A stretch of 13,107 bases of DNA from a virus (IMGVR_UViG_2648501150_000039); one strand, 5' to 3'; positions 204 through 13,107 are shown, numbered from the stretch's first letter. Notes: generated by a model not told the origin, from the sequence alone. Numbers and translations are program-made.

Positions 204-1133
204 CTACTTATTTCCCTGTCCAATCTTACCCGCAACTGCCTCGGTAAGCTTTACTAAGGTTTCAAGTTCATTTTTGTCTAATTTTCTTGCTTCAATAATT
301 TCAGTAGTCTGCCCTGATTCTAGTTTTCCAACTCTTGAGCTAAAATTAATTTTATCCAGAAGGTCTATCATATCGATATCTTTCTGGCTAGCCATTACAA
401 GCTTTATAATGGCATAGCTTTCCTCACGTGAACGTTTTATTGCCTCGTAATAGCGAAACTCATCCATCGTAACCCGATATTGCTTCAAAAAGAAAAATGC
501 GATTAACTCCAAGAAAATCAACACGCCAAAATTAGGGAGAAGATACATTACCTTGGTTACCGCATCATCCTTAGCATCAATTACATGTGATTGAGAATAG
601 AAGAAACCTAATCCAACTATTGCAAAACAAACACCGACTAATAAATAAAGACTACCGCGAGAATATATGTTTTTCGCAAGACCTTCAGAGCTATTAATCA
701 AACCTTTAAGATAAAAATCCAGAGATTCATCTTCATCAGCAGCAGCCCTTTCCTCTTGAGCCTTCTTGAGTAGTTTTATCTCATTTATAATATCGACAAT
801 ATTAAACATCGATGATTTGTCGACTGAATCACTCCCTGTAATTCTCATAAACATTCTTTGGATTGGAGACACACCATAGATAATGGTGTAAACGATTACA
901 AATGACACTGCGAATATTGACCTGATAAAGCTCGGCAAATGTGTAAGATCTGCTCTCGCACTGGGAAATAAATAATAAAAGGTTGAGTCTAATATCCCTG
1001 TAGCAAAAATTACATTTGCAACTAGAAAGACTGCACCTATCTCAACTAAATTATAAAAACCACGAGTGCGTACCCTAATGACTTTGGCCTCGGTCATTCT
1101 TGGAGGTGTTTCGATGGTTGGCTCACTCATCAT
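204..1133 (-). CDS. Hypothetical membrane protein, four predicted transmembrane helices in two hairpins separated by a charged coiled-coil-like linker; function unknown
   Basis: 309-aa uninterrupted ORF. Hydrophobic stretches LVEIGAVFLVANVIFATGIL, IFAVSFVIVYTIIYGV, LYLLVGVCFAIVGLGFFY and VLIFLELIAFFFL. AGGA lies upstream of an ATGATG start. The gene is visibly AT-rich compared with the tail genes. I recognise no family. Confidence 0.6.
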   Translation of the reverse strand: MMSEPTIETPPRMTEAKVIRVRTRGFYNLVEIGAVFLVANVIFATGILDSTFYYLFPSARADLTHLPSFIRSIFAVSFVIVYTIIYGVSPIQRMFMRITGSDSVDKSSMFNIVDIINEIKLLKKAQEERAAADEDESLDFYLKGLINSSEGLAKNIYSRGSLYLLVGVCFAIVGLGFFYSQSHVIDAKDDAVTKVMYLLPNFGVLIFLELIAFFFLKQYRVTMDEFRYYEAIKRSREESYAIIKLVMASQKDIDMIDLLDKINFSSRVGKLESGQTTEIIEARKLDKNELETLVKLTEAVAGKIGQGNK

Positions 1134-1410
1134 ATAATCCTGTTAAATTAGAAATAGGGTTAAGAGTTACAGCTTCTTCTAAATGATCTGGTGCAAAATG
1201 AGCGTATCTCATGGTTTCCCTAATGTTAGAATGGCCCAAGATTCGTTGCAGTACTAAAATGTTCCCACCATTCATCATAAAGTGACTCGCAAATGTATGA
1301 CGTAACACATTCGTTTTTTGCCCTTCAGCTAACTCTATATCGGTCAGAGCGAGCATTTTCTTGAACTCCTGATAGCAGGGGTGGAACATTTTTCCCTGTA
1401 AAGGAGCCAA
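1123..1410 (-). pseudogene. Tyrosine recombinase (phage integrase) C-terminal fragment, 5'-truncated
   Basis: The 95-aa translation carries the catalytic C-terminal signature of tyrosine recombinases (VLRHTFASH ... LGHSNIRETMRYAH, with the His/Arg and Tyr boxes). The N-terminal two thirds are absent: sequence upstream of 1410 encodes tail-fibre segments on the other strand. The stop TGA overlaps the ATGATG start of the 204..1133 gene. Confidence 0.85.
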
Positions 1411-1447
1411 CTCGTCATATAGCCACCGAGGGATCGGTACTGTACGA

Positions 1448-1473
1448 TTCTTCTTTCCCTTGGTTTGGGAGAA
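1448..1473. repeat. Left crossover site of invertible segment (gix/hix-like, about 26 bp)
   Basis: The reverse complement of 1458..1474 (CTTCTCCCAAACCAAGG) matches 3466..3482 (CTTCTCCTAAACCAACG) at 15 of 17 positions, in inverted orientation. The half-site TTCTCCCAAACC resembles the Hin/Gin half-site (TTCTTGAAAACC / TTATCCAAAACC as I recall them). The central dinucleotide is AA/TT. The site sits in the fibre reading frame and encodes G-L-G-E. Confidence 0.7.
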
Positions 1474-1959
1474 GGCTCTGCATTACCTGTTGGCGTCCCT
1501 GTTCCGTGGCCTTCAGCCACACCGCCAACAGGCTGGCTGAAATGCAATGGTGCAGCTTTTTCTGCTGAAGAATACCCGGAACTGGCAAAGGCTTATCCGG
1601 CAAATAAATTGCCTGATTTACGTGGTGAGTTTATTCGTGGCTGGGATGACGGACGGGGGATTGATACAGGTCGCTCTATTTTAAGTATTCAGGGGTATGC
1701 AACGGAGGATCATGCTCATGGATTACCGTCAAGATCCACGATTGTGACTGATGCAACGATTAATTTCTATTTTGATGAAAGCTGGGTAAATAGTGGCACT
1801 GACATTATCAAAAGAGGAAACACAAACGATGCCGGATTACCAGCACCGGATTATGGAACCTTTAAAACATATAAACAATCAGTGGCTGGTTTAGGTGCCG
1901 CAGCCTCAGAAACGCGTCCGCGTAATATTGCATTTAACTATATCGTGAGGTCAGCCTGA
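1465..1959 (+). CDS. Tail fibre C-terminal variable segment (Sv-like, tail-collar type); lacks the N-terminal constant part
   Basis: Translation contains tail-collar-like motifs (PTGWLKCNGAAFSAEEYPELAKAY, LPDLRGEFIRGWDDGRGIDTGR). The frame is open only from 1423 and has no upstream coding sequence to join. The stop overlaps the start of the next gene (TGATG). Confidence 0.8.
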   Translation: MGEGSALPVGVPVPWPSATPPTGWLKCNGAAFSAEEYPELAKAYPANKLPDLRGEFIRGWDDGRGIDTGRSILSIQGYATEDHAHGLPSRSTIVTDATINFYFDESWVNSGTDIIKRGNTNDAGLPAPDYGTFKTYKQSVAGLGAAASETRPRNIAFNYIVRSA

Positions 1960-2561
1960 TGCATAAAGCAATATTAAATAGTGAGCTTATTGCAACAAAG
2001 GCAGGGGATGTTACCGTTTATAACTACGATGGTGAAACACGGGAATATATTTCCACGTCAACTGAATATCTTGCGGTTGGCGTCGGTATCCCGGCATGTT
2101 CTTGTTTAGATGCGCCAGTTACACATAAAGCTGGTTATGCAATCTGCCGTTCTGCAGATTTTAACTCATGGGAATATGTGCCAGACCATCGCGGTGAAAT
2201 CATCTATAGCACCGAAACAGGAGAATCGAAAGAAATCACAGCTCCGGGTGATTATCCTGAAAATACAACCACTATCGCCCCGTTAACGCCATACGATGAA
2301 TGGGATGGTGAGAAATGGGTAACAGATACTGTGGCACAGCATAGCGCCGCAGTAGGCGCGGCAGAAGCACAGCGTCAGTCACTGATTGATAATGCAATGG
2401 CTTCCATTAGTCTGATTCAGCTGAAATTGCAGGCCGGACGGAATCTGACGCAGGCAGAAACCGCCCGACTTAACGCTGCGCTGGATTACATTGACGCGGT
2501 GACGGCAACAGATACCAGCACCGCGCCGGATGTCATCTGGCCTGAACTGCCGGAGGCGTAG
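1959..2561 (+). CDS. Tail fibre assembly protein (Tfa / P2 gpG / Mu U family)
   Basis: 200 aa, immediately downstream of the fibre variable segment. The C-terminal DVIWPELPEA matches the conserved Tfa C-terminal motif. Confidence 0.85.
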   Translation: MHKAILNSELIATKAGDVTVYNYDGETREYISTSTEYLAVGVGIPACSCLDAPVTHKAGYAICRSADFNSWEYVPDHRGEIIYSTETGESKEITAPGDYPENTTTIAPLTPYDEWDGEKWVTDTVAQHSAAVGAAEAQRQSLIDNAMASISLIQLKLQAGRNLTQAETARLNAALDYIDAVTATDTSTAPDVIWPELPEA

Positions 2562-2976
2562 GCCATTCAATATCTGGCGCACCGGAAGTATCGACCAGTT
2601 CCAGTGCGTCCAGATAATCCAGCCACAAATTATATTGCGCCAGTTCCTCACCTTTCAGGCGACCAATCGCCGCTTTACCAGGCCATTGCTTACTGTATAT
2701 GTATTCGTTGACCTGATTAATCAATTGCTGCTTTTCCAGTTCGGCTGCAGCAATTTGTTCCTCATGAGTTGGCGGTGGAATTTCCCCCCAGGTGGGAAGG
2801 CCATCATCACCCGCGATGCGTACTTTCCCTTGCAACGTTCTGTCTTCAATAAATTCCAGGTAAGTGTCATATGTCACTTCGACAACATCAGCAAGTTCCC
2901 ATCCGGCCTGTTCATATTTCGCCACATCATTTTTAGCGAAAAAACTATTTTTTGAGGCGCTATAAACCATTTCCAT
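2533..2976 (-). CDS. Alternative tail fibre assembly protein (Tfa', opposite orientation)
   Basis: 147 aa, convergent with the other tfa gene and overlapping its 3' end by 29 bp. The C-terminal DIEWPTPPAV matches the Tfa motif. This is the Mu U/U'-like arrangement. Confidence 0.8.
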   Translation of the reverse strand: MEMVYSASKNSFFAKNDVAKYEQAGWELADVVEVTYDTYLEFIEDRTLQGKVRIAGDDGLPTWGEIPPPTHEEQIAAAELEKQQLINQVNEYIYSKQWPGKAAIGRLKGEELAQYNLWLDYLDALELVDTSGAPDIEWPTPPAVQAR

Positions 2977-2977
2977 A

Positions 2978-3553
2978 TTAATACCCTACTGCAATATAAA
3001 AAACTGATTCACCAGCGTCCTGAGAACCTACCCCCGGAACGCCAGACCAGGTTTTGTTAATGAATGCAAAACTGGTATTACTCAGATCAGATGCTCTGTA
3101 CATCGGGCTGAACATCCAGTAGTTGGCTCCATATGTTTGTCCGAAAACAATGCCATAGCACTGATTTGTAAATGGCGTAGAAAATAATTTTCCACCAGTA
3201 CCAGCGATAGTCCCGAATCGCATCTGGAACCCATTCGGGAAATTAATTCCGCCTGCCGGTGAAGACCAGTAAGACATATCAGGTATTTGCCCAGCACTAT
3301 TTCCCACGTTTTTTGTTGCAACGGTTCCTAACCCAAGATTAGCTCTTGCGTCAGATTTATTTGTTAACTCATAAAGATTATTTGCCTTTTGAAGTGCTCC
3401 TATTATGCGTAAATCATCACCAGCGGCAACGGTTCCGACTGTCGTGCCCACATCCCTTTTCGCCGCTTCTCCTAAACCAACGTTTTCGTTTTTATCCCTA
3501 CCTATACCAACTCTGTATTTTTCACGAAACAAAGAGGATGTTTTTTTATGCAA
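2978..3553 (-). CDS. Alternative tail fibre C-terminal variable segment (Sv'-like)
   Basis: Open frame on the minus strand running through the right crossover site, where it encodes NENVGLGE (the same GLGE junction as the left site). It is glycine-rich and fibre-like, and lies immediately upstream of tfa' on the same strand. The tracked start is an artefact; there is no constant N-terminal region. Confidence 0.7.
   Translation of the reverse strand: MHKKTSSLFREKYRVGIGRDKNENVGLGEAAKRDVGTTVGTVAAGDDLRIIGALQKANNLYELTNKSDARANLGLGTVATKNVGNSAGQIPDMSYWSSPAGGINFPNGFQMRFGTIAGTGGKLFSTPFTNQCYGIVFGQTYGANYWMFSPMYRASDLSNTSFAFINKTWSGVPGVGSQDAGESVFYIAVGY
3467..3492. repeat. Right crossover site of invertible segment (gix/hix-like)
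   Basis: TTCTCCTAAACC-AA-CGTTTTCGTTTT; 3466..3482 is the inverted-repeat partner of 1458..1474. It lies 55 bp upstream of the invertase start codon. Confidence 0.7.
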
Positions 3554-4147
3554 ATTGGCTATATTCGTGTGTCAACAAATGACCAGAACACGGATTTACA
3601 ACGCAATGCACTGAACTGCGCAGGATGTGAACTGATTTTTGAAGATAAAATCAGCGGAACGAAATCAGCCAGACCGGGATTGAAAAAACTGCTCAGAACG
3701 CTATCAGAAGGAGATACGCTGGTTGTCTGGAAGCTGGACAGACTGGGCAGAAGTATGAAACACCTGATCACGCTTATTGAGGAATTGCGGGAAAAAGGTG
3801 TTAATTTCCGTAGTCTGACGGACAGCATTGACACATCAACACCCATGGGGCGTTTCTTTTTTCACGTCATGGGGGCTTTAGCCGAAATGGAACGTGAATT
3901 AATTGTAGAGCGTACACTGGCCGGGCTGGCAGCAGCACGCGCACAAGGACGCATTGGCGGACGTCGCCCGAAGTTGACAAAAGAACAACACGAGCAAATA
4001 GCGAGGCTGATTAAAAACGGTCATGACAGGAAACAACTGGCGATCATTTACGACATCGGCATATCGACGATTTATCGTTATCACCCTGTAGGCGATATAC
4101 AGGCTGAAGAAACAACCAGGCAGACTCAGGAAAATAAAAACCGCTAA
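3548..4147 (+). CDS. Site-specific DNA invertase, serine recombinase (Hin/Gin/Pin/Cin family)
   Basis: The N-terminus MQIGYIRVSTNDQNTDLQRNAL contains the catalytic serine motif of resolvase/invertases. A C-terminal helix-turn-helix region follows (GRRPKLTKEQHEQIARLIKNGHDRKQLAIIYDIGISTIYRY). AGAGGA lies upstream of the ATG. The gene is adjacent to the invertible fibre segment. Confidence 0.95.
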   Translation: MQIGYIRVSTNDQNTDLQRNALNCAGCELIFEDKISGTKSARPGLKKLLRTLSEGDTLVVWKLDRLGRSMKHLITLIEELREKGVNFRSLTDSIDTSTPMGRFFFHVMGALAEMERELIVERTLAGLAAARAQGRIGGRRPKLTKEQHEQIARLIKNGHDRKQLAIIYDIGISTIYRYHPVGDIQAEETTRQTQENKNR

Positions 4148-4164
4148 TCTGACCATTAGCGGTT
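4139..4164. terminator. Bidirectional terminator hairpin between convergent invertase and gpU genes
   Basis: AACCGCTAAT-CTGACC-ATTAGCGGTT forms a 10-bp stem. T/A-rich flanks on both sides (AAAATAAAAA upstream, TTTTGCG downstream). The invertase stop codon lies inside the stem. Confidence 0.55.
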
Positions 4165-4173
4165 TTGCGTTAA

Positions 4174-4668
4174 TCAAAACAGCCCTTTAACGGAGCTGGC
4201 CGCGCTGTTAAGGGATGATGTGACCTTATCTTTGAAGCCGGACAGCATATCACTGAACGATGAGGATTGCAGGCGCTCCCGCAAATCCTCATCACAGCGT
4301 TCAAGAGTCAGTGAAAATTCTATCTTTTTCGCCTTACCGTAGCGATCAAACTCGGAACGGGTCGTATTCGTTTCAGTCAGTACATACATGCCGTAAATCT
4401 GCCCGACACCATCAATCAGAGGCCAGGGGCGTCCTGTATATGCCTGCGTGGTCAGCAACGAAAGCGACACTTCGCCACCTGTAATTTCAGGATAAAGCAC
4501 GCCGGAAAGCACGATGCGATCATCACCTGCGCCGATATACTGCCAGCTTGCTGAACGGTTAACGCGTTCATTTTTCACATGCCGCCAGCTTTTGTTTTGC
4601 TGTAACTGCTGATGCGGCAATGTGCGCAGCTCAAAAACAAACATGCCGTAGATCATCATCATGGCCAT
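4174..4668 (-). CDS. Phage tail protein, P2 gpU-like
   Basis: 164-aa ORF directly downstream of the tape measure gene in the same orientation, matching the position and size of gpU in the P2 FI-FII-E-T-U-D order. The exact start among several N-terminal Met codons is uncertain. Confidence 0.75.
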   Translation of the reverse strand: MAMMMIYGMFVFELRTLPHQQLQQNKSWRHVKNERVNRSASWQYIGAGDDRIVLSGVLYPEITGGEVSLSLLTTQAYTGRPWPLIDGVGQIYGMYVLTETNTTRSEFDRYGKAKKIEFSLTLERCDEDLRERLQSSSFSDMLSGFKDKVTSSLNSAASSVKGLF

Positions 4669-4674
4669 GACTCC

Positions 4675-7524
4675 TCAATCTTTATCGTAAAAACTGCCAC
4701 GCCCGGCACGGGCGCGCCGTTCCATTTCTGCCCTGACCATTTCGCCAATCAGTTTCGCCAGTTCGCGGGGATTCTGTGTAACAACGTTATGCAGATGAAC
4801 ATGAATTTCACCGCCAAATCCGGAGGCAACAGGCTCCCGGTTACGGGAAGTTGCAGGAACTGATGCCACTGGCGATCGTATAGCCTCCGCCACCGGGCGG
4901 GAGCTGGCCGCAACAACAGGGACCAGCGCCGGAGGCAGCGGAGCCGGAACCACGGGTGTGATAGTAATTGCGGGGGCAGGCTTACTGACCTGCGCAATCT
5001 TCCGCTCCTGCCACTCCCCACGAACAGCAAGTGCGCGGGGCAGGTTCTTAAAGACAATATCGCCGGGGCCAATGCGTTTTTTCGTCTCATCAACCAGCTT
5101 ACCTGTGTTATCAGCAATTTTGCTGAGTCTGCGTAGCGTACCGGTATTGTTGTCTGTGAGCGGTTTGTTGTCTCTGGGTTTATCGCCTTTTTTGTCGTCG
5201 ACCTTATCTGACGGGGCCGGGCCGGGAGTCCATGGTTTCTGAACCATTTTCTTGAGAACCGGATCCCATTCCCACATTACAGGAGCCTTTGAAGCGTTCT
5301 CTATTTTCTTTCTCGCCCGTTCCGCTTCATCCGGAAGCACTCCGAGCTTTTCAAGTATCCACGCCAGTGAATCCATCAATGCTTTTGTTGGCGTCAGGAC
5401 AAGCTCTATCGCTCCACCGAGTACCCTGCCGAATACCTCGCCAGCACTGGTACATTTATCCAGCGTTTCCTTGCTGGACTCCATCGGTGACAGCAGCGAT
5501 TTAAACCAGTTAAAGACCTGAATAATCCCATCGCGCACGACATCAAAAACTGGACCGAACCGTTCAAAGGTTTCGCGCAACGGAGCCAGCCGTTCCATAA
5601 TCCCACTGAACACCCCTGCATAAAACGCCTTGATGGGTTCCCAGTATTTCCAGATGAGAACCGCCGCAGCCACAAACGCAGCAGCAATCAATCCGACCGG
5701 GCTGAACAGCGCCCCGATAGCGCCCCCCAGTAACGAAACGGAACCCGTCACCATTCCCCATAGTGCTGGCAGGAGCCTGACAGCATTCATTGATCCGGTC
5801 AGGAGGGAAAAGCCAAGACGCAGTTTTGCCAGCGGGCCAGCAAGCACACCAATAGCCAACGACAACGAGCCGACCGTTGCAGTCATCGCCAGCAATGCCC
5901 CACCTGCAATCAGTAGCTGGCGCGTCAGTGCCGGATGGGCCTGCGCCAGCGCCGTCACCTTTGATACCACCCGCGTGAGCCACTGCGTGACAGAACGCAG
6001 CGGACCGTCAATCAGATCTGCAATGCGGATGCGCAACCCTTCCCATGCACTGCCGAGTGATTTCAGATCGCCGTCAAGGTTGTTGGCCATAACCTTTGCT
6101 GTGCGTTCAGCCTCACCGCGCGCGCCTTCAAGTTCTTTTCTCAGTTTGGGTAAGGAGCCGTCACCCGCTGCATCAACGAGCGCCATAAACGATGTGAAAG
6201 CCTCTTCTCCGGCAATGTCCTTAAAGAACGATACCCGGTCAACTTCCCCGTATTTGCGGGTGGCTTTATAAAGGTCGGCCAGTACATCCTCCATCGGGCG
6301 CATTTTGCCGTTCGCGTCAGAGACAGCCACACCCAGCTCTTTCAGCGCCTCTGCTGCCGCCTTTGGCGGTGATGCCAGACGAGCCAGGCTGGCACGCATT
6401 GCCGTCCCGGCATCACTCCCTCTGATGCCCATATTCGCCAGCACGCCCGCCATCGCAGCGGCCTGCTCCAGCGATATTCCCAGCTTACCCGCCACCGGAC
6501 CTGCATATTTCATGGTTTCGCCCAGCGCGCGAAGGTCAGTGTTGGTACGGGTAAACGCCGCTGTAAGCGTGTCGCCAACCCGGTCCATCTGGTCAGCAGA
6601 GAGGCCGAACTGCGTCAGGATATTTGAGCCAATATCCGCCGTCTCGCCGAGATCCATACCGCCAGCCGTTGCCATGCTCAGCACGCCGGGAAACGCAGCC
6701 TGAATGGCCTGCGGAGTAAAACCAGCCATTGCAAGAAATGCCTGTCCACTGGCGGCATCTCCAGCGGTGAACTGCGTTTCAGAGCCAAGTTTTAACGCCT
6801 GCTCACGCAGCGCCTTAAACTGTGGGCTGTTTTTGTCGATTCGCGTCAGTGCCTGAACGCGGGACATCTCTTTCCCGAACCCAATCGCGGGCTGCAAAAA
6901 ACGCCCGGCAGCATAGCCGCCCGCCGCTGCCGCACCTGTTGCCAGTGCACCACCTGTTTTCAGTTTTCCCGCGGTTTCCTGCGCGCGCGAATACCGCTCA
7001 CGCGCCCGCGTTACACGCGCAAGCGCCTGCCGTTCGCGTTCAAGCTGGTTGTTGTACTGTTCGGTGCGTCTGATGGCCTGCTGGATGGTGTTATCGCTGC
7101 CTGTCAGGGAAATGCCGTGGCGTTTCAGCTCTCCGCCAAGCTCCCGCATTTTCTGAATCTCCCGTGTGCGCGATTCATTCAGGCGTTCAAGCCGGGTGCT
7201 TAACTGCTGCATCAGCTTTTGTTGTTTTTCGCTGAGCACTGTACCCGTGCGTTGTAACTGATTAAGGGCGTTAAGCTGGCGTCGTGCTTTCACGATACCC
7301 GCATCCGCTTTACTGACAGCGTCGCGGGCGCGCTCAAATGAACGCGCCTGACGCTCGAGATTTTTGATCGCCCCCTGCGTTCGCTGGATGGAGTCACCAA
7401 ACTGCCCCATCAGGCGGCGTGCGTTTTCTGCAGGTCGGGTCAGCCTGTCAACGGCGCTGAAAGCGACCCGGATATCAAGAGTCTTCATTGTCTGCATTCC
7501 CGCTGCGAAGTGCCGCCCGCTCAC
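4675..7524 (-). CDS. Tail tape measure protein (P2 gpT-like)
   Basis: 949-aa ORF with a coiled-coil N-terminal third (repeated QRTxxL, ERxRQALAR-type heptads), a central Gly/Ala-rich hydrophobic segment, and a position between E/E' and U. The true start may be an internal Met (MQTMKTL), overlapping the end of E'. Confidence 0.9.
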   Translation of the reverse strand: MSGRHFAAGMQTMKTLDIRVAFSAVDRLTRPAENARRLMGQFGDSIQRTQGAIKNLERQARSFERARDAVSKADAGIVKARRQLNALNQLQRTGTVLSEKQQKLMQQLSTRLERLNESRTREIQKMRELGGELKRHGISLTGSDNTIQQAIRRTEQYNNQLERERQALARVTRARERYSRAQETAGKLKTGGALATGAAAAGGYAAGRFLQPAIGFGKEMSRVQALTRIDKNSPQFKALREQALKLGSETQFTAGDAASGQAFLAMAGFTPQAIQAAFPGVLSMATAGGMDLGETADIGSNILTQFGLSADQMDRVGDTLTAAFTRTNTDLRALGETMKYAGPVAGKLGISLEQAAAMAGVLANMGIRGSDAGTAMRASLARLASPPKAAAEALKELGVAVSDANGKMRPMEDVLADLYKATRKYGEVDRVSFFKDIAGEEAFTSFMALVDAAGDGSLPKLRKELEGARGEAERTAKVMANNLDGDLKSLGSAWEGLRIRIADLIDGPLRSVTQWLTRVVSKVTALAQAHPALTRQLLIAGGALLAMTATVGSLSLAIGVLAGPLAKLRLGFSLLTGSMNAVRLLPALWGMVTGSVSLLGGAIGALFSPVGLIAAAFVAAAVLIWKYWEPIKAFYAGVFSGIMERLAPLRETFERFGPVFDVVRDGIIQVFNWFKSLLSPMESSKETLDKCTSAGEVFGRVLGGAIELVLTPTKALMDSLAWILEKLGVLPDEAERARKKIENASKAPVMWEWDPVLKKMVQKPWTPGPAPSDKVDDKKGDKPRDNKPLTDNNTGTLRRLSKIADNTGKLVDETKKRIGPGDIVFKNLPRALAVRGEWQERKIAQVSKPAPAITITPVVPAPLPPALVPVVAASSRPVAEAIRSPVASVPATSRNREPVASGFGGEIHVHLHNVVTQNPRELAKLIGEMVRAEMERRARAGRGSFYDKD

Positions 7525-7711
7525 GCCAGCTAACCACTTCGCCGGGCGTCATCATGAAGATTTCGGCGGGCGACCAGTTAAAAATAACGGCAATATCTGC
7601 CACAAAGTCTTCTATGTGCTCAAAGCACACAACCGTGATCAGGCTTCCGTCGCCTGTTCGTTCTTCCCGCCAGAGTCCGCACCGCTCAAAAAATTTACGG
7701 CAACCACACAT
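7475..7711 (-). CDS. E' frame: C-terminal extension of the E+E' tail assembly chaperone, reached by -1 frameshift
   Basis: This ORF is in the -1 frame relative to E, begins around the slippery heptamer, and ends overlapping the start of T, as in the P2 E/E'/T arrangement. It is not an independent gene. Confidence 0.7.
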   Translation of the reverse strand: MCGCRKFFERCGLWREERTGDGSLITVVCFEHIEDFVADIAVIFNWSPAEIFMMTPGEVVSWRERAALRSGNADNEDS

Positions 7712-8004
7712 AACTGAATAAAGTCACGGGATGCCATTTTTTTGATCGTCACTTCATCCAGTCGCGGTGATGTCACGCGTGACAGCAGCGTAAACATGGA
7801 TTCCGCTTTCAGATTCAGCACATCAGACAGCGACAAATCTCGCAGAGATCCAGCCTGCTCAATAGCCCCGGTGATCTCCACATACGTGATTTTTTCGCCG
7901 CCTCGCTCAATTGGTTGGGTAAGTTTTACGCCACGCTCACTGGTTTCTTTCACAGTGTCAGCAACTACCGTGTTTTCGGTATCGATGTTTTTCGTCTCTT
8001 TCAT
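7639..8004 (-). CDS. Tail assembly chaperone, P2 gpE-like (0-frame product)
   Basis: 121-aa ORF between the tail tube and tape measure genes. AAAGGAG lies 7 nt upstream of the ATG. It contains the slippery site near its 3' end. Confidence 0.75.
   Translation of the reverse strand: MKETKNIDTENTVVADTVKETSERGVKLTQPIERGGEKITYVEITGAIEQAGSLRDLSLSDVLNLKAESMFTLLSRVTSPRLDEVTIKKMASRDFIQLCVVAVNFLSGADSGGKNEQATEA
7687..7693 (-). other. Programmed -1 ribosomal frameshift slippery heptamer T_TTT_TTG (E to E+E')
   Basis: The minus strand reads GTA AAT TTT TTG AGC in the E frame (V N F L S). Slipping back one nucleotide enters the 7475..7711 frame (RKFFERCGLW...). TTTTTTG is the heptamer used by P2-like E/E' genes. 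Confidence 0.75.
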
Positions 8005-8058
8005 CAGGAAACTCCTTTCAGTCAGAGGCGGCGCACTGCGCCGCCTGCATATTACTTA

Positions 8059-8571
8059 TCAGCCAAGCCCAAGCGCGGAACGGATGCGATCGGGCACAAT
8101 GTCCTTGCCGTCCTTCCGGTAAATGAAGTTCAGCAGGTCAATCTCCCACAACGGGCGATCGTTAACACTCAGCTTGTAGTAGGTGTTTTTAATGGCGTAA
8201 GTGTGTGATGTGGCTTCGCCCTGTTTGGCTTCCCCCATATCAATTTCCGTCACACGTCCGCGCATCTCGATTTCATACAGATCGCTTTCTGCATCGGTGT
8301 AGTATTCACCCGCAAAACGCAGCAGCGTGCCGTCAATCGTGCCGCCATACTTAAGGAACAGCTCACGAACTGCGCCCCCCATGACAAAGCTCGCATCAAG
8401 CGCGGAGTCGTCCAGACCGAGATCAATACTTACCGCACCCATCATGCCACCACCCCGGTAGCTGTCGGTTTTGCGCGTCAGCTTAGGCAGAGTGACGGAC
8501 GTCACCTTACCCACTTCGTTTTCACCATCCACAAACAGCGTAAAAAAGCGAAGATGTTTTGGTACAGCCAT
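8059..8571 (-). CDS. Tail tube protein (P2 gpFII-like)
   Basis: 170 aa, immediately downstream of the sheath gene with a TGATG stop/start overlap. Size and position match the P2 tube protein. Confidence 0.85.
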   Translation of the reverse strand: MAVPKHLRFFTLFVDGENEVGKVTSVTLPKLTRKTDSYRGGGMMGAVSIDLGLDDSALDASFVMGGAVRELFLKYGGTIDGTLLRFAGEYYTDAESDLYEIEMRGRVTEIDMGEAKQGEATSHTYAIKNTYYKLSVNDRPLWEIDLLNFIYRKDGKDIVPDRIRSALGLG

Positions 8572-9755
8572 CAGGCACCTCCCAGCACCGCAAATGCGGG
8601 ACCAAAGAATTCATCAGTAAACGACTGGTAAAGCTCCATGTCTTCCAGCGGGGGAACAGGCGTATATTTGTAGCGAATACGCACACGCCCCTGACGTAAA
8701 TTCGTGGTGCCGTTATCCACCACGTCATACCAGCACGACGCCCCAATCAGTTTCCCGGCAGTAACCAGTGAATCCAGTTTTGCCCTGATGGCACTGATAA
8801 CATCTTTCACGTTCGCAGGCGTCAGTGGACTGTCGATGGTTTCAAACTGCGCTTCCGCAATTGAATCAGCCAGCACCTGTGCGGTTCGGGTATACACCTC
8901 AAAGATGTAGGCGTTCGTTTCCGGTGTGCGGTTGCCCCAGAAGCGGAACCCGTTGCGACGAATAATGGTCGTGATTTCTTTGTTGTTGAGGCTGTTGGCA
9001 TCGCTGTCTTCGGCCTGCAACGACCAGAACACATGCCTGGACATCCCCAGCACATTTTTAACCGGAACGTTGGACAGTGATTTGTGCCATCCCTGCTCAT
9101 GGTCAATGTACGCACGAAGGCCGCACGCATAGGCAGGCGCGGGGAACGTTTCGTTTTTGCCACTTTTCGGGTTGTAGGCGATGAAGTCCGGCCATAAGAG
9201 CATCACCTCACGTTCGTTGAATTTCTGGCGGTAGGTAATCACCTCAGCCATCGTGTTACAGCCGTGACATGAGGCATACACAAACGCGCGCAGTTTACCC
9301 GCAATCACGCACAGGGATTTTGTCACCGCCTCCGTGTCCAGCTCCGGCGCGGCCAGAATACGCGGACGGTATCCGATGCTTTCATCCTGCTCTGCAACAA
9401 GCAGCGCATACATCCCCGTATAGCTGCCGTCAGATTCAGAACCACCGATAACCAGTTGATCCTGCGTCTTTCCGTCTTCTTCTTTGTGTTCAGCCACGCG
9501 AACGACGATCACCTTTGTGCTCACCTGGTCTGCGATGGCCTTAAGCGCACGATAAAGCGTCCCCGTTGTCCCGCATTTTCCCAGCACGTCATTGACGCGG
9601 GTCAGCAGTGTGGGCTTGTTCAGCGGGAACAGCTTCGCGTCCGCATCATCCGCCGTTGCCACGATACCGATAACGCTGGAATCAACATCGTTAATCGCTG
9701 TTACCAGGTCGGTATTTTCCGTAACACGGGCACCATGAAAACGAGTTTCACTCAT
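8571..9755 (-). CDS. Contractile tail sheath protein (P2 gpFI-like)
   Basis: 394 aa. Motifs I recall from P2 FI are present: FPLNKP, KLRAF, YRQKF, WPDF, EQGWHKSLSNV, RRNGFRFWGNRT, YTRTAQV, YTPVPPLE. AAGGGG lies upstream of the ATG. Confidence 0.92.
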   Translation of the reverse strand: MSETRFHGARVTENTDLVTAINDVDSSVIGIVATADDADAKLFPLNKPTLLTRVNDVLGKCGTTGTLYRALKAIADQVSTKVIVVRVAEHKEEDGKTQDQLVIGGSESDGSYTGMYALLVAEQDESIGYRPRILAAPELDTEAVTKSLCVIAGKLRAFVYASCHGCNTMAEVITYRQKFNEREVMLLWPDFIAYNPKSGKNETFPAPAYACGLRAYIDHEQGWHKSLSNVPVKNVLGMSRHVFWSLQAEDSDANSLNNKEITTIIRRNGFRFWGNRTPETNAYIFEVYTRTAQVLADSIAEAQFETIDSPLTPANVKDVISAIRAKLDSLVTAGKLIGASCWYDVVDNGTTNLRQGRVRIRYKYTPVPPLEDMELYQSFTDEFFGPAFAVLGGA

Positions 9756-9912
9756 AGCTTTAGCCCCTTGTATCCGTTAAATGATTCGGCAACAATCATC
9801 ACCCACCACGCGCGTAATCTCACCCCTGTGCCGTTCTCCCGATCCGGCGACAACAAAAAGCAGTAACCCCCTCCGCACGCACATGCGACCATGCCGCACA
9901 GGGAGGGAACAG

Positions 9913-11022
9913 ATGACCGATACCACCATGCAATTGCTCAGTCAGGGCACAGACCCCGTGAAAATGCCGGATTTTGATATTCTCGCGGAGGGTAAAACGC
10001 TGTCAGGCGTGGCAGAGCGCCTGATGAGCCTGTCACTGACCGACAACCGGGGATTTGACGCGGACCAGCTCACCATCACGCTGGATGATGCGGATGGTCA
10101 GTTGCAGCTACCGCCACGGGGCGCGCGCCTGACGGTTCTCATTGGCTGGAAAGGAGAACCGCTGACAGAAAAAGGCACTTACATTGTTGATGAAATCGCT
10201 CACGAAGGACCGCCGGACAGGCTGACTGTTTCAGCCAGAAGCGCAGATTTTCGGGATGAATTTAACGTTAAACGTGAGGTGTCCTGGCATGATGTGACCG
10301 TTGAGCGTGTGGTATCCGCCATCGCTCATCGGTATGGTCTGAAACCGCAAATCAGCGAAATGCTGATGGATATCGAAATCGACCACGCCGACCAGACCGA
10401 AGAAAGCGATATGTCCTTCCTTACGCGCATGGCGGAAATGCTGGGCGCAATCACCACGGTAAAAAGCGGCAATCTGTTATTCATCATGCCAGGTGGTGGC
10501 GTGAACGCACAGGGCCAGCCGTTGCCATCGTTCGCCATCACACGCAGCAGCGGCGATCGCCATCAGTTCCGCATTGCTGACCGCGAGGCGTATACGGGGG
10601 TACGCGCTTACTGGCTTGATCTTAATTACGGGAAAAAGAAAAAAGTCAGCGTGAAACGCCGCAAACCGCCAAAACCCAAAAAGGAGAAAAGCAGCAGCCG
10701 TGAAGGTGATTATATGGAAGGCGCGGAAGGCAATGTGTTTGTGTTACGCAAGACTTATCAGAACGAGCAGGCAGCAAGACGCGCAGCGGCGGCAAAGTGG
10801 CAGCAGCTACAACGCGGAGCCGCATCATTTTCCATCACGCTGGCGCGTGGACGTGCAGAACTCTACCCCGAAATGCATGGCACGGTAACAGGATTTAAAA
10901 GCGAGATTGATAATCAGGACTGGATTATTGCAAAAGCCGAGCACACCATTGATAACAGCGGCTTTACCACGCAGCTTGAGCTTGAGGCAAAAATCCCGGA
11001 ATGGATAGCAGAAACAGCGTGA
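9913..11022 (+). CDS. Phage late control gene D family tail protein (P2 gpD-like)
   Basis: Long ORF; the likely start is the ATG at 9913, preceded by GGGAGGGAA (the tracked ORF starts upstream at 9781). Size is about 370 aa. The call rests on overall resemblance to P2 gpD as recalled and on its position next to the other P2 tail genes and ogr. Confidence 0.8.
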   Translation: MTDTTMQLLSQGTDPVKMPDFDILAEGKTLSGVAERLMSLSLTDNRGFDADQLTITLDDADGQLQLPPRGARLTVLIGWKGEPLTEKGTYIVDEIAHEGPPDRLTVSARSADFRDEFNVKREVSWHDVTVERVVSAIAHRYGLKPQISEMLMDIEIDHADQTEESDMSFLTRMAEMLGAITTVKSGNLLFIMPGGGVNAQGQPLPSFAITRSSGDRHQFRIADREAYTGVRAYWLDLNYGKKKKVSVKRRKPPKPKKEKSSSREGDYMEGAEGNVFVLRKTYQNEQAARRAAAAKWQQLQRGAASFSITLARGRAELYPEMHGTVTGFKSEIDNQDWIIAKAEHTIDNSGFTTQLELEAKIPEWIAETA

Positions 11023-11075
11023 ATGTCTTAAATGTATTAGTTCAGATATGTACTAGCAATAAACATAGTTAGAAA

Positions 11076-11091
11076 GGCCGCTAACGCGGCC
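11076..11091. terminator. Hairpin between convergent gpD and the 11114..12283 gene (possible bidirectional terminator)
   Basis: GGCCGC-TAAC-GCGGCC, a 6-bp GC stem with a tetraloop in an AT-rich context. It is located after both stop codons. The U-tracts are weak. Confidence 0.4.
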
Positions 11092-11113
11092 ATATTAATT
11101 AAAACTCCAGTTA

Positions 11114-12283
11114 CTAATATTGAGAAAGATAATCAGCGACTCCATCTGCAGGGTTTCGCCCACCAGTATAAATTGTGCCTAATTCTTGAGGTGTAACATA
11201 TGTTGTAGGCCAAATGGCCATATTTTTAAAATAGTTATCTATTTTTATTCTTTGAAGTTCTTTAAAGAGATAATCTTCTAAGTCATTTCTTTTTAGACAG
11301 TTAACATAATAAGCAGCCGCACTTGCTACTATATCTACAATTTGTAATTGAGGATACTCTTGTGATGAATGGAATGTCAAAGAACGAGCTTTAATTGGCA
11401 ATTCAAATTTTCTTCGATCATAACCATATGCCTCCGTAATTTTTGATATATCCATAAATTTATCAAAAATATCTTTCTTCTCTGTAATAGCTTTGGAATC
11501 GTCATGCTTAATATAAAAACCATTAGGGTATAATTTACCCCATTCTACACAGTGTCTAAAGAGGCTTGGTATAGATGGATCTAATGTGCTTTTCTCAACA
11601 CCTTCCAATATATCATCAATATCGCTTCTGGTAATACTAATTCTGTTTATTATATCTGTGAATATCTTATCACTTGAGCATATCTTTAACTCATCAATTA
11701 CCCTGTAAAATTCATCAATTGACTCAGTCGATTGGCTTCTGATCATATTCATAAAACACTGATACATTACCTCTGTTTTTTCCTCCCCACAGAAAGCAGG
11801 GAAACAGAAATAGTAAACATTAGACAGAGCTAGATTCTGTCCATTTATATAAAGATCTATTCCTCTATTAGAGCACCACGTCTCGATCAAAATATCAACA
11901 ATCTTTGCTGTTAGCATGTATTTTTTATCGACCAAGTATATTTTAACATTCTCTTCATTGACATATTTGCTTTCAAGAAGCCTAATGATGCCATCCTGAC
12001 CAGATTTTCTACGTCTAAGAGTTTTAAAGTGGGCTTCTGTTGGAGACTTGCTTCCGGTTAGTTCTAATGCCTTAAGCGCATCCTGTTTACTAATACTACT
12101 TGAACTTAAGGTAAAAACAGGTTGCAATGGATCGAGTAAATTTCCGCCAGTATTACCTGATTCATCAAAAAATATATCAGGCTTTATATACAACATTTTA
12201 TTTATCTTTGCCGCTAAGTTTCTTTTTTTCTCATTTTCTCGCTTAATTTTATTATCTCGCCTACGTTGACTATTCTTTCCCAT
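11114..12283 (-). CDS. Hypothetical protein, AT-rich cargo gene; possible DUF3800-like family (motif-level recall only)
   Basis: 389-aa uninterrupted ORF antisense to both gpD and ogr. K/R-rich N-terminus, then DIFFDESGNTGG; near the C-terminus QLQIVDIVASAAAYY. These resemble the DESG and Q-x-x-(A/V)-D signatures I associate with DUF3800. Codon usage is strongly AT-biased, unlike the flanking phage genes. Confidence 0.65.
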   Translation of the reverse strand: MGKNSQRRRDNKIKRENEKKRNLAAKINKMLYIKPDIFFDESGNTGGNLLDPLQPVFTLSSSSISKQDALKALELTGSKSPTEAHFKTLRRRKSGQDGIIRLLESKYVNEENVKIYLVDKKYMLTAKIVDILIETWCSNRGIDLYINGQNLALSNVYYFCFPAFCGEEKTEVMYQCFMNMIRSQSTESIDEFYRVIDELKICSSDKIFTDIINRISITRSDIDDILEGVEKSTLDPSIPSLFRHCVEWGKLYPNGFYIKHDDSKAITEKKDIFDKFMDISKITEAYGYDRRKFELPIKARSLTFHSSQEYPQLQIVDIVASAAAYYVNCLKRNDLEDYLFKELQRIKIDNYFKNMAIWPTTYVTPQELGTIYTGGRNPADGVADYLSQY

Positions 12284-12515
12284 AAATACCTCACAATCTG
12301 AATTAGATATCCCAATTTAACGCATTAATAACATAATGTTATGATATCACACAATCAAAATAACGTGCTGATTTTAATGTATCAGGTTTGACTAGCTATT
12401 CTTTGATAAGCGAATAATAAGAATGTCAGCCCCTCAACTCAAAGCGGTTTAGTCAGTTGGAATCGGAGCTAGTAGAACTTAAAATAACAGAAGCACCACG
12501 TTAAGGGAGGTCTCT

Positions 12516-12776
12516 ATGTTCCGTTGTCCGCTTTGTGGCGCATCTGCCCGTATCCGCACAAGTCGTCCGGAAAATGATTCAAACACCGTGCGGCAAAAGT
12601 ATTACCAGTGTAACAACCTGGAATGCGGCGTATGCTTCTCAACACTGGAAGCCTTCCATAAATTCACATCAAAACACGCCTCCGCCGTTCACTCTTCAGA
12701 AGGTATCCCGTGGCATGAGCTGCCAGCTTCACACAGGGGAAACAATCAGATGAGTTTGCCTTTACCTCAGAACTAA
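12516..12776 (+). CDS. ogr: Ogr/Delta-family zinc-finger late transcription activator
   Basis: The N-terminus MFRCPLCGASARIRTSR ... YYQCNNLEC gives a C-x2-C ... C-x4-C zinc-finger spacing close to P2 Ogr (MFHCPLC ... CQNVNC). Strong SD AAGGGAGG lies upstream. It sits downstream of gpD, as in P2. Confidence 0.85.
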   Translation: MFRCPLCGASARIRTSRPENDSNTVRQKYYQCNNLECGVCFSTLEAFHKFTSKHASAVHSSEGIPWHELPASHRGNNQMSLPLPQN

Positions 12777-12785
12777 CAGGCAGAA

Positions 12786-12814
12786 TTGCCGGATTAACAA
12801 AAAAGCGATAGATT
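12786..12814 (+). promoter_or_regulatory. Putative sigma70 promoter for the hok-family mRNA
   Basis: TTGCCG (12786..12791), a 17-nt spacer, then TAGATT (12809..12814). The predicted transcript would start about 145 nt upstream of the toxin ATG, giving the long structured leader typical of hok mRNAs. Confidence 0.3.
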
Positions 12815-12836
12815 ACGCGCGGGTGCCTTTCGGCTG

Positions 12837-13100
12837 ATGGTCGGAGGGAATACCCGAAGGCCAGATGTGGAAAGGCCCCGGAAAACATCTCTGTTTAACC
12901 GAGGCCCTAACCGCATTACCTTGACAAGTGAAAGGTTAGCGCCTCTCCGGAAAAGGAGCAAGTGCTATGTCGCAAAAATCGCTTACGGCCATCACGTTCT
13001 GCGTGACGGCAATCCTCATCATCTGGATGCTGCACGGTTCACTGTGCGAAATACGGATGAGCTTCTGGGGAGCGGAGTTTGCGGCGTTCTTACAGTGTAA
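12837..13100 (+). other. mok-like overlapping reading frame (possible translational-coupling ORF for the hok-family toxin)
   Basis: 87-codon ORF in a different frame that overlaps almost the whole toxin ORF and ends 7 nt before it. This is analogous to mok in hok/sok loci, but may be fortuitous. Confidence 0.3.
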
Positions 13101-13107
13101 GCAGTAA
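12967..13107 (+). CDS. Hok/Gef-family type I toxin (small membrane peptide)
   Basis: Manual translation gives the 46-aa peptide MSQKSLTAITFCVTAILIIWMLHGSLCEIRMSFWGAEFAAFLQCKQ. It has an N-terminal transmembrane helix, then SLCEIR and EFAAFLQCK, matching the Hok-family signature (compare Hok ...SLCEIR...EVAAFMAYE). AAGGAG lies 8 nt upstream. It was not in the ORF track because it is under 60 aa. The stop is the last codon in the window. Confidence 0.75.
   Translation: MSQKSLTAITFCVTAILIIWMLHGSLCEIRMSFWGAEFAAFLQCKQ

Follow-up and report, generated by a model that had tools for sequence, protein, structure and literature searches.

A tail-gene stretch composed of two P2-family prophage elements that meet inside an invertible fibre cassette

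Here we show that a 13,107-nt stretch of viral DNA (IMGVR_UViG_2648501150_000039, the whole of which is called the window below), carrying contractile-tail genes of P2 type without a baseplate or head module, combines two ordinary prophage elements of the P2 family (Peduoviridae) from an Escherichia coli that resembles enteropathogenic E. coli (EPEC). The left 2.6 kb belong to a P2-like prophage remnant situated between yfiB and rplS, and the remainder is the right arm of a separate P88-like prophage (genus Xuanwuvirus) situated at ihfA. The two sources meet within an invertible tail-fibre cassette, and the join itself is probably a repeat-induced assembly chimera of a short-read draft, a reading to which we assign a probability of about 0.7 from the geometry and the uniqueness of the join.

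An earlier note on this DNA had treated positions 1123-13107 as a single locus, either a split module with its missing parts elsewhere in the genome or a decaying remnant kept for its cargo genes. Its description of long intact tail open reading frames (ORFs) in a window that holds no baseplate, fibre constant region, head or lysis genes is upheld by six-frame ORF analysis and by Pfam and PHROGs scans of the whole 13,107-nt window, which form the basis of the gene map given here; in the window these scans returned no baseplate V/W/J/I, fibre constant part, head, lysis, replication or immunity domain. The range itself, however, covers two unrelated elements. A tail module without a baseplate is a property of the draft contig and not of a biological element, the parts being ordinary and already catalogued.

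Two prophage elements in one contig

An exact-protein look-up with the sheath led to draft contig JHRF01000033.1 (GCA_001265355.1; 37,541 bp), with which the window is 100% identical over 13,107 bases. The contig continues into host genes on both sides, raiA-pheA-tyrA-aroF-yfiL-yfiR-dgcN-yfiB on the left and ihfA-pheT-pheS-rplT-rpmI-infC-thrS on the right, so there is no complete prophage at this place: V/W/J/I, full-length H, Q/P/O/N/M/L and the lysis, replication and immunity genes that make up a complete P2-family prophage are absent from the element.

The composite origin and the position at which the source changes are seen directly in two alignments. Against EPEC O127:H6 strain E2348/69, which matches positions 1-2784, the window has one mismatch (at 2213) as far as 2658 and then 13 in 2659-2784. 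Against an ihfA-adjacent prophage of another assembly (L006), it has 24 mismatches in 2298-2531 and then one (at 6693) in 2532-13107. The switch zone, 2532-2658, comprises 127 bp identical in both sources and lies within approximately 505 bp of approximately 95% similarity, at the 3' ends of the convergent tail-fibre-assembly genes tfa and tfa'. From 2280 to 13107 the window matches ihfA-adjacent prophages (L006, L011 and L012, and also L008-L010) at 99.75-99.99%.

Positions 1-93 are host yfiB-rplS intergenic DNA, recognised by their match to rplS-adjacent DNA of prophage-free E. coli, and contain the core of the left attachment site (attL); yfiB ends just ahead of position 1. The core is a 14-bp direct repeat, TTAGTTAAGACGCT, present at 77-90 and at 21605-21618 of L003, and E2348/69 likewise carries it at its rplS stop codon. 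The prophage is inserted at the 3' end of rplS, whose stop-codon region is duplicated by the integration. Positions 1-2658 correspond, with the single mismatch given above, to a remnant in the E2348/69 chromosome (NC_011601.1, 2,976,2xx-2,987,5xx), positions 1-1500 being 100% identical. Window and remnant share attL, an AT-rich gene, a fragment of the integrase gene (int'), a hybrid invertase crossover site and the Sv/Tfa fibre genes. The E2348/69 remnant then continues with its own invertase and with FI-FII-E-E'-T-U-D-ogr in canonical P2 order up to rplS, whereas the window continues with the P88-like arm and ihfA. Every other contig with a remnant beside yfiB, among those listed, has the order invertase-FI-FII-E-E'-T-U-D-ogr-hyp-rplS; the Collar protein used for this look-up is indexed in 91 blocks, some of them outside the remnant context.

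To the right of the switch, 3554-11022 and 12475-13107 are collinear with phage P88 (NC_026014) at 94-95% nucleotide identity (94% over 7.5 kb), and the only break in collinearity across 3554-13107 is the insertion of a DUF3800 gene. The genes run invertase / U-T-E'-E-FII-FI(-) / D(+) / ogr / hok, and this order is the native one of Xuanwuvirus (P88), not that of P2. An inversion of the FI-U block relative to D by the invertase had been considered and was dropped, since P88 and many prophages natively carry that order. Beyond hok lies ihfA, in the source contig as in complete genomes; it begins approximately 300 bp past the end of the window. With both a collinear gene order and ihfA-adjacent integration with hok at the right end, positions 2532-13107 are the intact right arm of a P88-like prophage separate from the remnant.

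The comparison with P88 extends to the proteins. FI, FII, E and U have exactly the lengths of their P88 counterparts, and T (937 versus 935 aa) and D (369 versus 366 aa) differ by 2-3 residues; amino-acid identity is 92.9-99.5% for the tail proteins, with D 99.5% identical to P88 gp51, and 82% for the invertase. The ratio of non-synonymous to synonymous substitution rates (dN/dS) of the tail genes against P88, a comparison with a relative that the earlier note had asked for, is 0.01-0.30. Between D and ogr the window carries the DUF3800 gene, and P88 nothing that is annotated; the fibre cassettes also differ, and the arm in this contig lacks the left 27 kb of P88.

In relatives the tail genes are not orphans. 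The tail operon is 99.97-99.99% identical to that of sister assemblies, and leftward of the same arm (99.97% identical) L006, L011, L012, L026, L029 and L032 carry H, I, J, W, V, S, R, lysis, X, L, M, N and O, the fibre protein H being 532 or 544 aa in these assemblies. In the closed genome TUM13770 a 96%-identical prophage reaches back to the replication endonuclease gene within the stretch examined. The suggestion that the missing modules lie elsewhere is borne out for the tail genes, which in sister assemblies are contiguous with fibre, baseplate, lysis and capsid genes, and fails for the window as a whole. If the join is a chimera, the modules that the tail genes lack here would be carried by another contig of this genome.

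These data also bear on the idea that a single P2-like prophage decayed in place but kept its tail module, in domesticated form, for the sake of its cargo, namely ogr, hok and the pair of AT-rich genes. The window by itself does show intact tail genes with the other modules absent, and a real remnant of this type exists in the lineage, although with other tail genes, in P2 order. We nevertheless consider in-place decay very improbable. The left end of the window lies at the rplS/yfiB attachment site and the right end at that of ihfA, which excludes one prophage decayed in situ; the source of the sequence switches inside the cassette; and complete prophages carry a tail module 99.97% identical to this one. 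Decay thus describes the left 2.6 kb only (attL, the AT-rich gene, int' and the fibre C-terminal cassette) and not the tail genes, and retention of the tail module for its cargo is unsupported.

Nor does the real remnant point towards domestication. Its intact counterpart is a 32.5-kb prophage in strain RM14516, from which its tail genes differ by 9 substitutions (5 synonymous, 4 non-synonymous); these are too few, and the divergence too recent, for dN/dS to be informative about selection. In two DEC1 (EPEC1) assemblies (L016 and L017) the remnant's sheath is called as fragments of 305 + 80 aa. The split was resolved at the sequence level in L016 only, where it is a nonsense change, TGG->TGA, in codon 306 (W306*) at 13509-13511, and a broken sheath in this sublineage argues for decay over domestication.

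A domesticated contractile particle resembling a tailocin (R-pyocin-like), built from sheath, tube, tape measure, U and D, has next to no probability. In its favour, the genes for sheath, tube, tape measure and chaperones, U and D, and that of the Ogr activator are intact and, as in R-type pyocins and other tailocins, contractile sheath, tube, tape-measure and hub genes occur without head genes. A tailocin, however, retains its fibres, its lysis cassette and an entire baseplate, and the window has none of these: spike V, wedge W/J/I, a complete fibre and the lysis cassette are missing, and its fibre cassettes have neither the constant N-terminal part nor a promoter. To our knowledge, spike, wedge, complete fibre and lysis cassette are indispensable in known tailocins (R-type pyocins).

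Origin of the join

In the closed E2348/69 genome the hok-ihfA end of a P88-like prophage is at 1.903 Mb and the remnant at 2.976 Mb, on the same strand and 1.07 Mb apart, and both halves of the contig align plus/plus to this chromosome. A join of remnant-left to P88-right sequence in direct orientation closes 1.07 Mb on itself, so that in a viable chromosome it can only be the joint of a tandem duplication; otherwise it is an assembly chimera. The window is absent from all of 5,426 complete E. coli genomes, and none of them holds positions 2200-2900 above 96.1% identity over at least 80% of that stretch. A search for the exact 176-nt sequence across the switch gave two metagenome contigs, where it is embedded in unrelated cassettes of only 92-94% identity in the surrounding DNA, and no GTDB representative genome. 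Contigs of several independent draft assemblies stop exactly at corresponding places: L008-L010 end at the equivalent of window positions 3411-3474, at the invertase-proximal crossover site, and L022 and L023 end at the equivalent of approximately 2801-2847, the edge of the cassette repeat common to the prophages. In assembly graphs both of these places are branch nodes.

The same geometry would also result if the join were real, homologous recombination between the directly oriented Tfa cassettes having produced a tandem duplication of approximately 1.07 Mb (ihfA to yfiB) in which both parental prophages were kept. Such an event finds some support in the 127-bp perfect match inside the longer tract of similarity, in the direct orientation of the two elements in E2348/69, and in L035, a contig from the same project that also has an unusual join through a shared cassette. 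Two further considerations weigh against a chimera: approximately 500 bp of 95-100% similarity suffices for RecA-mediated recombination, and the contig is listed for 2 samples, which would make a real rearrangement more likely if they are independent isolates. On the other side, duplications of megabase size seldom arise between short diverged repeats and are unstable, the joint would have to dominate over the parental paths in the assembler, it is absent from the other assemblies listed and from closed genomes, and the two metagenome contigs have the switch sequence only within unrelated cassettes. A real duplication joint therefore seems unlikely to us, and an assembly chimera remains the preferred account.

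Two other origins of the join were considered and rejected. A chromosomal inversion between the prophages would give left-left and right-right junctions, and the observed junction is left-right; an exchange between prophages mediated by the invertase would place the switch at a crossover site, where 2532-2658 does not lie.

The tail genes themselves, a standard P88-like arm, offer little new biology. The wider point concerns the near-identical invertible fibre cassettes of co-resident prophages, which are spots where short-read assemblies break or mis-join, and through such mis-joins scans of draft contigs can manufacture apparent "orphan modules".

The other unusual contig of the project, L035 (GCA_001267345.1 JHRJ01000008.1, 1-17487), has a tape-measure gene split with a 5-6-bp target duplication. 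The halves of T are oppositely oriented around U - invertase(199) - fibre cassette - invertase(190, Mu-like), and next to the C-terminal half of T comes a set of Mu-like early genes (A, B, gam, gemA, mor). The contig combines a Mu-like insertion with either an inversion through shared cassettes or another mis-join.

The int'/fibre scar and the invertible cassette

The one mechanistically interesting item in the window is an invertase-site deletion scar at 1448-1473, where int' meets the fibre gene. It forms a hybrid 26-bp crossover site, TTCTTCTTTCCC-TT-GGTTTGGGAGAA, with its left half from a quasi-site in int and its right half from the site in the fibre gene (H); the 26-bp stretches compared with it lie at 21448-21473 of L004 and at 1665-1690 of L025. 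The adjoining int' (1123-1473, minus strand) is the C-terminal third of a P2-family tyrosine integrase gene, 116 codons matching positions 111-170 of the 172 in the Pfam Phage_integrase profile, and the N-terminal two thirds are deleted. It is 54% identical to residues 243-327 of P88 Int, and up to position 1466 it is 99.7% identical to the intact 345-aa int of RM14516. The prophage of that strain has the order yfiB-AT-rich gene-int-CI...replication...head...lysis...V-W-J-I-H-Tfa-Tfa'-Sv'-invertase-FI...ogr-hyp-rplS.

A three-way alignment of the intact int sequence (TTCTTCTTTCCC TT CGTTTTAGTGAA), the intact fibre site (TTCTTGATTACC TT GGTTTGGGAGAA) and the window places the exchange directly in the common CCTT, which includes the central TT. 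In the RM14516 prophage the parental sites form a pair of direct repeats separated by 21,073 bp. Scored against a palindromic site consensus over that whole 32.5-kb prophage, the int quasi-site ranks third, behind the two genuine sites, and it is identical at 19 of 26 positions, with the same central TT, to the fibre-gene crossover site of CEC03102. Since the scar junction is also found in four closed E2348/69 assemblies, it is real.

A Gin-like invertase, either the prophage's own or that of a related resident, would have recombined the fibre-gene site with the directly oriented int quasi-site, and the resulting deletion of 21,073 bp would have taken the 5' two thirds of int together with the immunity, replication, head, lysis and baseplate modules and the fibre's constant part. 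Deletion of DNA between direct repeats is a strongly disfavoured reaction for serine invertases, which counts against this mechanism, and for the same reason the 21-kb deletion must be rare. Microhomology-mediated illegitimate recombination at the shared CCTT would account for the deletion instead, though we regard it as a weak alternative, and a rare deletion reaction by a Gin-like invertase at a quasi-site is the most likely cause of the loss. Cin acts at quasi-sites according to Iida & Hiestand-Nauer 1986/87, as cited in PMC4134206. On this account the int'/fibre junction of the E2348/69-lineage remnant would be a clean natural example of a Din-family invertase acting at a secondary site, and it would offer a precise mechanism for one case of prophage domestication, in which 21 kb were deleted and the invertase's own prophage was immobilised.

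The invertible cassette (1462-3480) is itself mosaic, remnant-type to 2658 and P88-like-type from 2532. It is bounded by two inverted 26-bp sites (1448-1473 and 3467-3492) with an identical central dinucleotide, one outer half being derived from int. The invertase-proximal site at 3467-3492, TTCTCCTAAACC-AA-CGTTTTCGTTTT, is the same in the P88-like prophages L006 and L013. The half-sites, TTCYCCNAAACC around a central AA/TT, are near the Din-family consensus of Sandmeier 1994 as tabulated in PMC4134206.

Flipping is visible directly in the assemblies, for the remnant and the P88-like cassettes. The remnant cassette lies in opposite orientations in L014 and L015, with the outer half-sites swapping exactly at the central AA; the hybrid crossover site remains an inversion substrate in the remnant. 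Relative to L014, the same flipped gene order is seen in L015, L017 and L023 (positions 10009 and 11870). The P88-like cassette is likewise found in both orientations, in L006 and L013, where the inner half-sites swap; they differ by one base (C/T), which changes sides upon inversion. The constant 5' fibre part and promoter that lie upstream in a working switch are missing from the window, an opposite-strand int fragment abutting the site instead, and the remnant's promoterless cassette keeps flipping through the hybrid site.

Two more far-reaching readings may be set beside this. In one, the join would be a real recombinant of the fibre cassettes of two resident prophages, marking a megabase duplication or rearrangement in a clinical EPEC isolate. 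In the other, invertase self-deletion at an int quasi-site would be a recurrent, site-specific route to locked-in, head-less P2-family remnants, whose still active switch would be a hot spot of recombination with phages that arrive or already reside in the cell. We hold these readings to be unlikely.

Gene content and relation to known systems

The leftmost gene (204-1133, minus strand; 308/309 aa), AT-rich cargo of 35% GC, is conserved in the remnant (E2348/69) as well as in the intact prophage (RM14516), where its place is between attL and int; it matches no Pfam family, and PHROGs gives a weak match to phrog_5157, of unknown function. In the cassette, Sv (1465-1959, plus strand) is a fibre C-terminus with a Collar domain and Sv' (2978-3553, minus strand) a second fibre C-terminus. 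Between them lie the convergent tail-fibre-assembly genes Tfa (1959-2561, plus strand) and Tfa' (2533-2976, minus strand). The cassette genes are recognised by Collar, Caudo_TAP and tail-fibre phrog matches. The invertase (3548-4147, plus strand; 199 aa) is an intact serine DNA invertase of the Gin/Cin/Pin family (Resolvase, 1.5e-51, and HTH_7), which matches Mu Gin (PDB 4M6F) at E 3e-91 and conserves the catalytic-serine motif VSTNDQ.

The tail genes, assigned by Pfam and PHROGs, are on the minus strand: U (4174-4668), the tape measure T (4675-7488), the E' frame with the GpE domain (7475-7711) and E (7639-8004), both tail chaperones, the tube gene FII (8059-8571) and the sheath gene FI (8571-9755). 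ORF analysis of the window finds them free of internal stops. A slippery heptamer, TTTTTTG, lies at approximately 7687-7693 on the minus strand, some 45 nt ahead of the E stop, with the GpE-domain frame in -1, which is the conserved P2-type E/E+E' -1 frameshift arrangement. The baseplate hub or late control gene D (9913-11022, plus strand; 369 aa; Phage_GPD) starts at 9913, its longest ORF being 413 aa. The coupled stop/start overlaps described for these genes exist for FI/FII (1 nt) and for E'/T; D, on the opposite strand and divergent from FI, is not coupled to U. The dyad of Ogr-type late promoters, TGT-N12-ACA, has four matches in the window against a chance expectation of 3.1, and none in the FI-D intergenic region.

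The D-ogr gap (11023-12515) is a variable slot among P88-like prophages (34433-34928 in L001, 29469-31440 in L005 and 11234-12243 in L024). It holds the AT-rich DUF3800 cargo gene (389 aa) in the window (11114-12283, minus strand; DUF3800, phrog_12991) and in TUM13770, a PIN-domain protein of 500 aa in CEC03102 and a 221-aa hypothetical protein in E2348/69; the P88 interval is a 494-bp gap. PADLOC gave no credible defence match for either AT-rich gene of the window (one chance-level Cas5a hit, E 0.0015), and none of the genes in the slot matches a PADLOC model. Beyond it are the late activator gene ogr (12516-12776, plus strand; Ogr_Delta) and hok (hok/mok; 12967-13107, plus strand), found through a MokW-like host-killing phrog. 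The hok product is a Hok/Gef peptide by its match to phrog_251 (1.3e-22) and by annotation, the PF01848 match being weak, and hok is a standard right-end gene of P88-like phages. As to the Sok antisense RNA and the mRNA fold of a hok/sok type I toxin-antitoxin system, Rfam returned no family at gathering score anywhere in the window, which stops at the hok stop codon.

Among known switches, the cassette has the features common to Mu Gin/G, P1 Cin/C and e14 Pin/P: a serine invertase, 26-bp sites, and alternative fibre C-termini each with its assembly chaperone. The use of a degenerate secondary site would likewise be in keeping with Din-family systems. Here, in contrast to those systems, the secondary-site event would have been a deletion between direct repeats within the prophage, at the cost of the phage itself and of the fibre's constant part, and the switch of the remnant flips without an expressible product.

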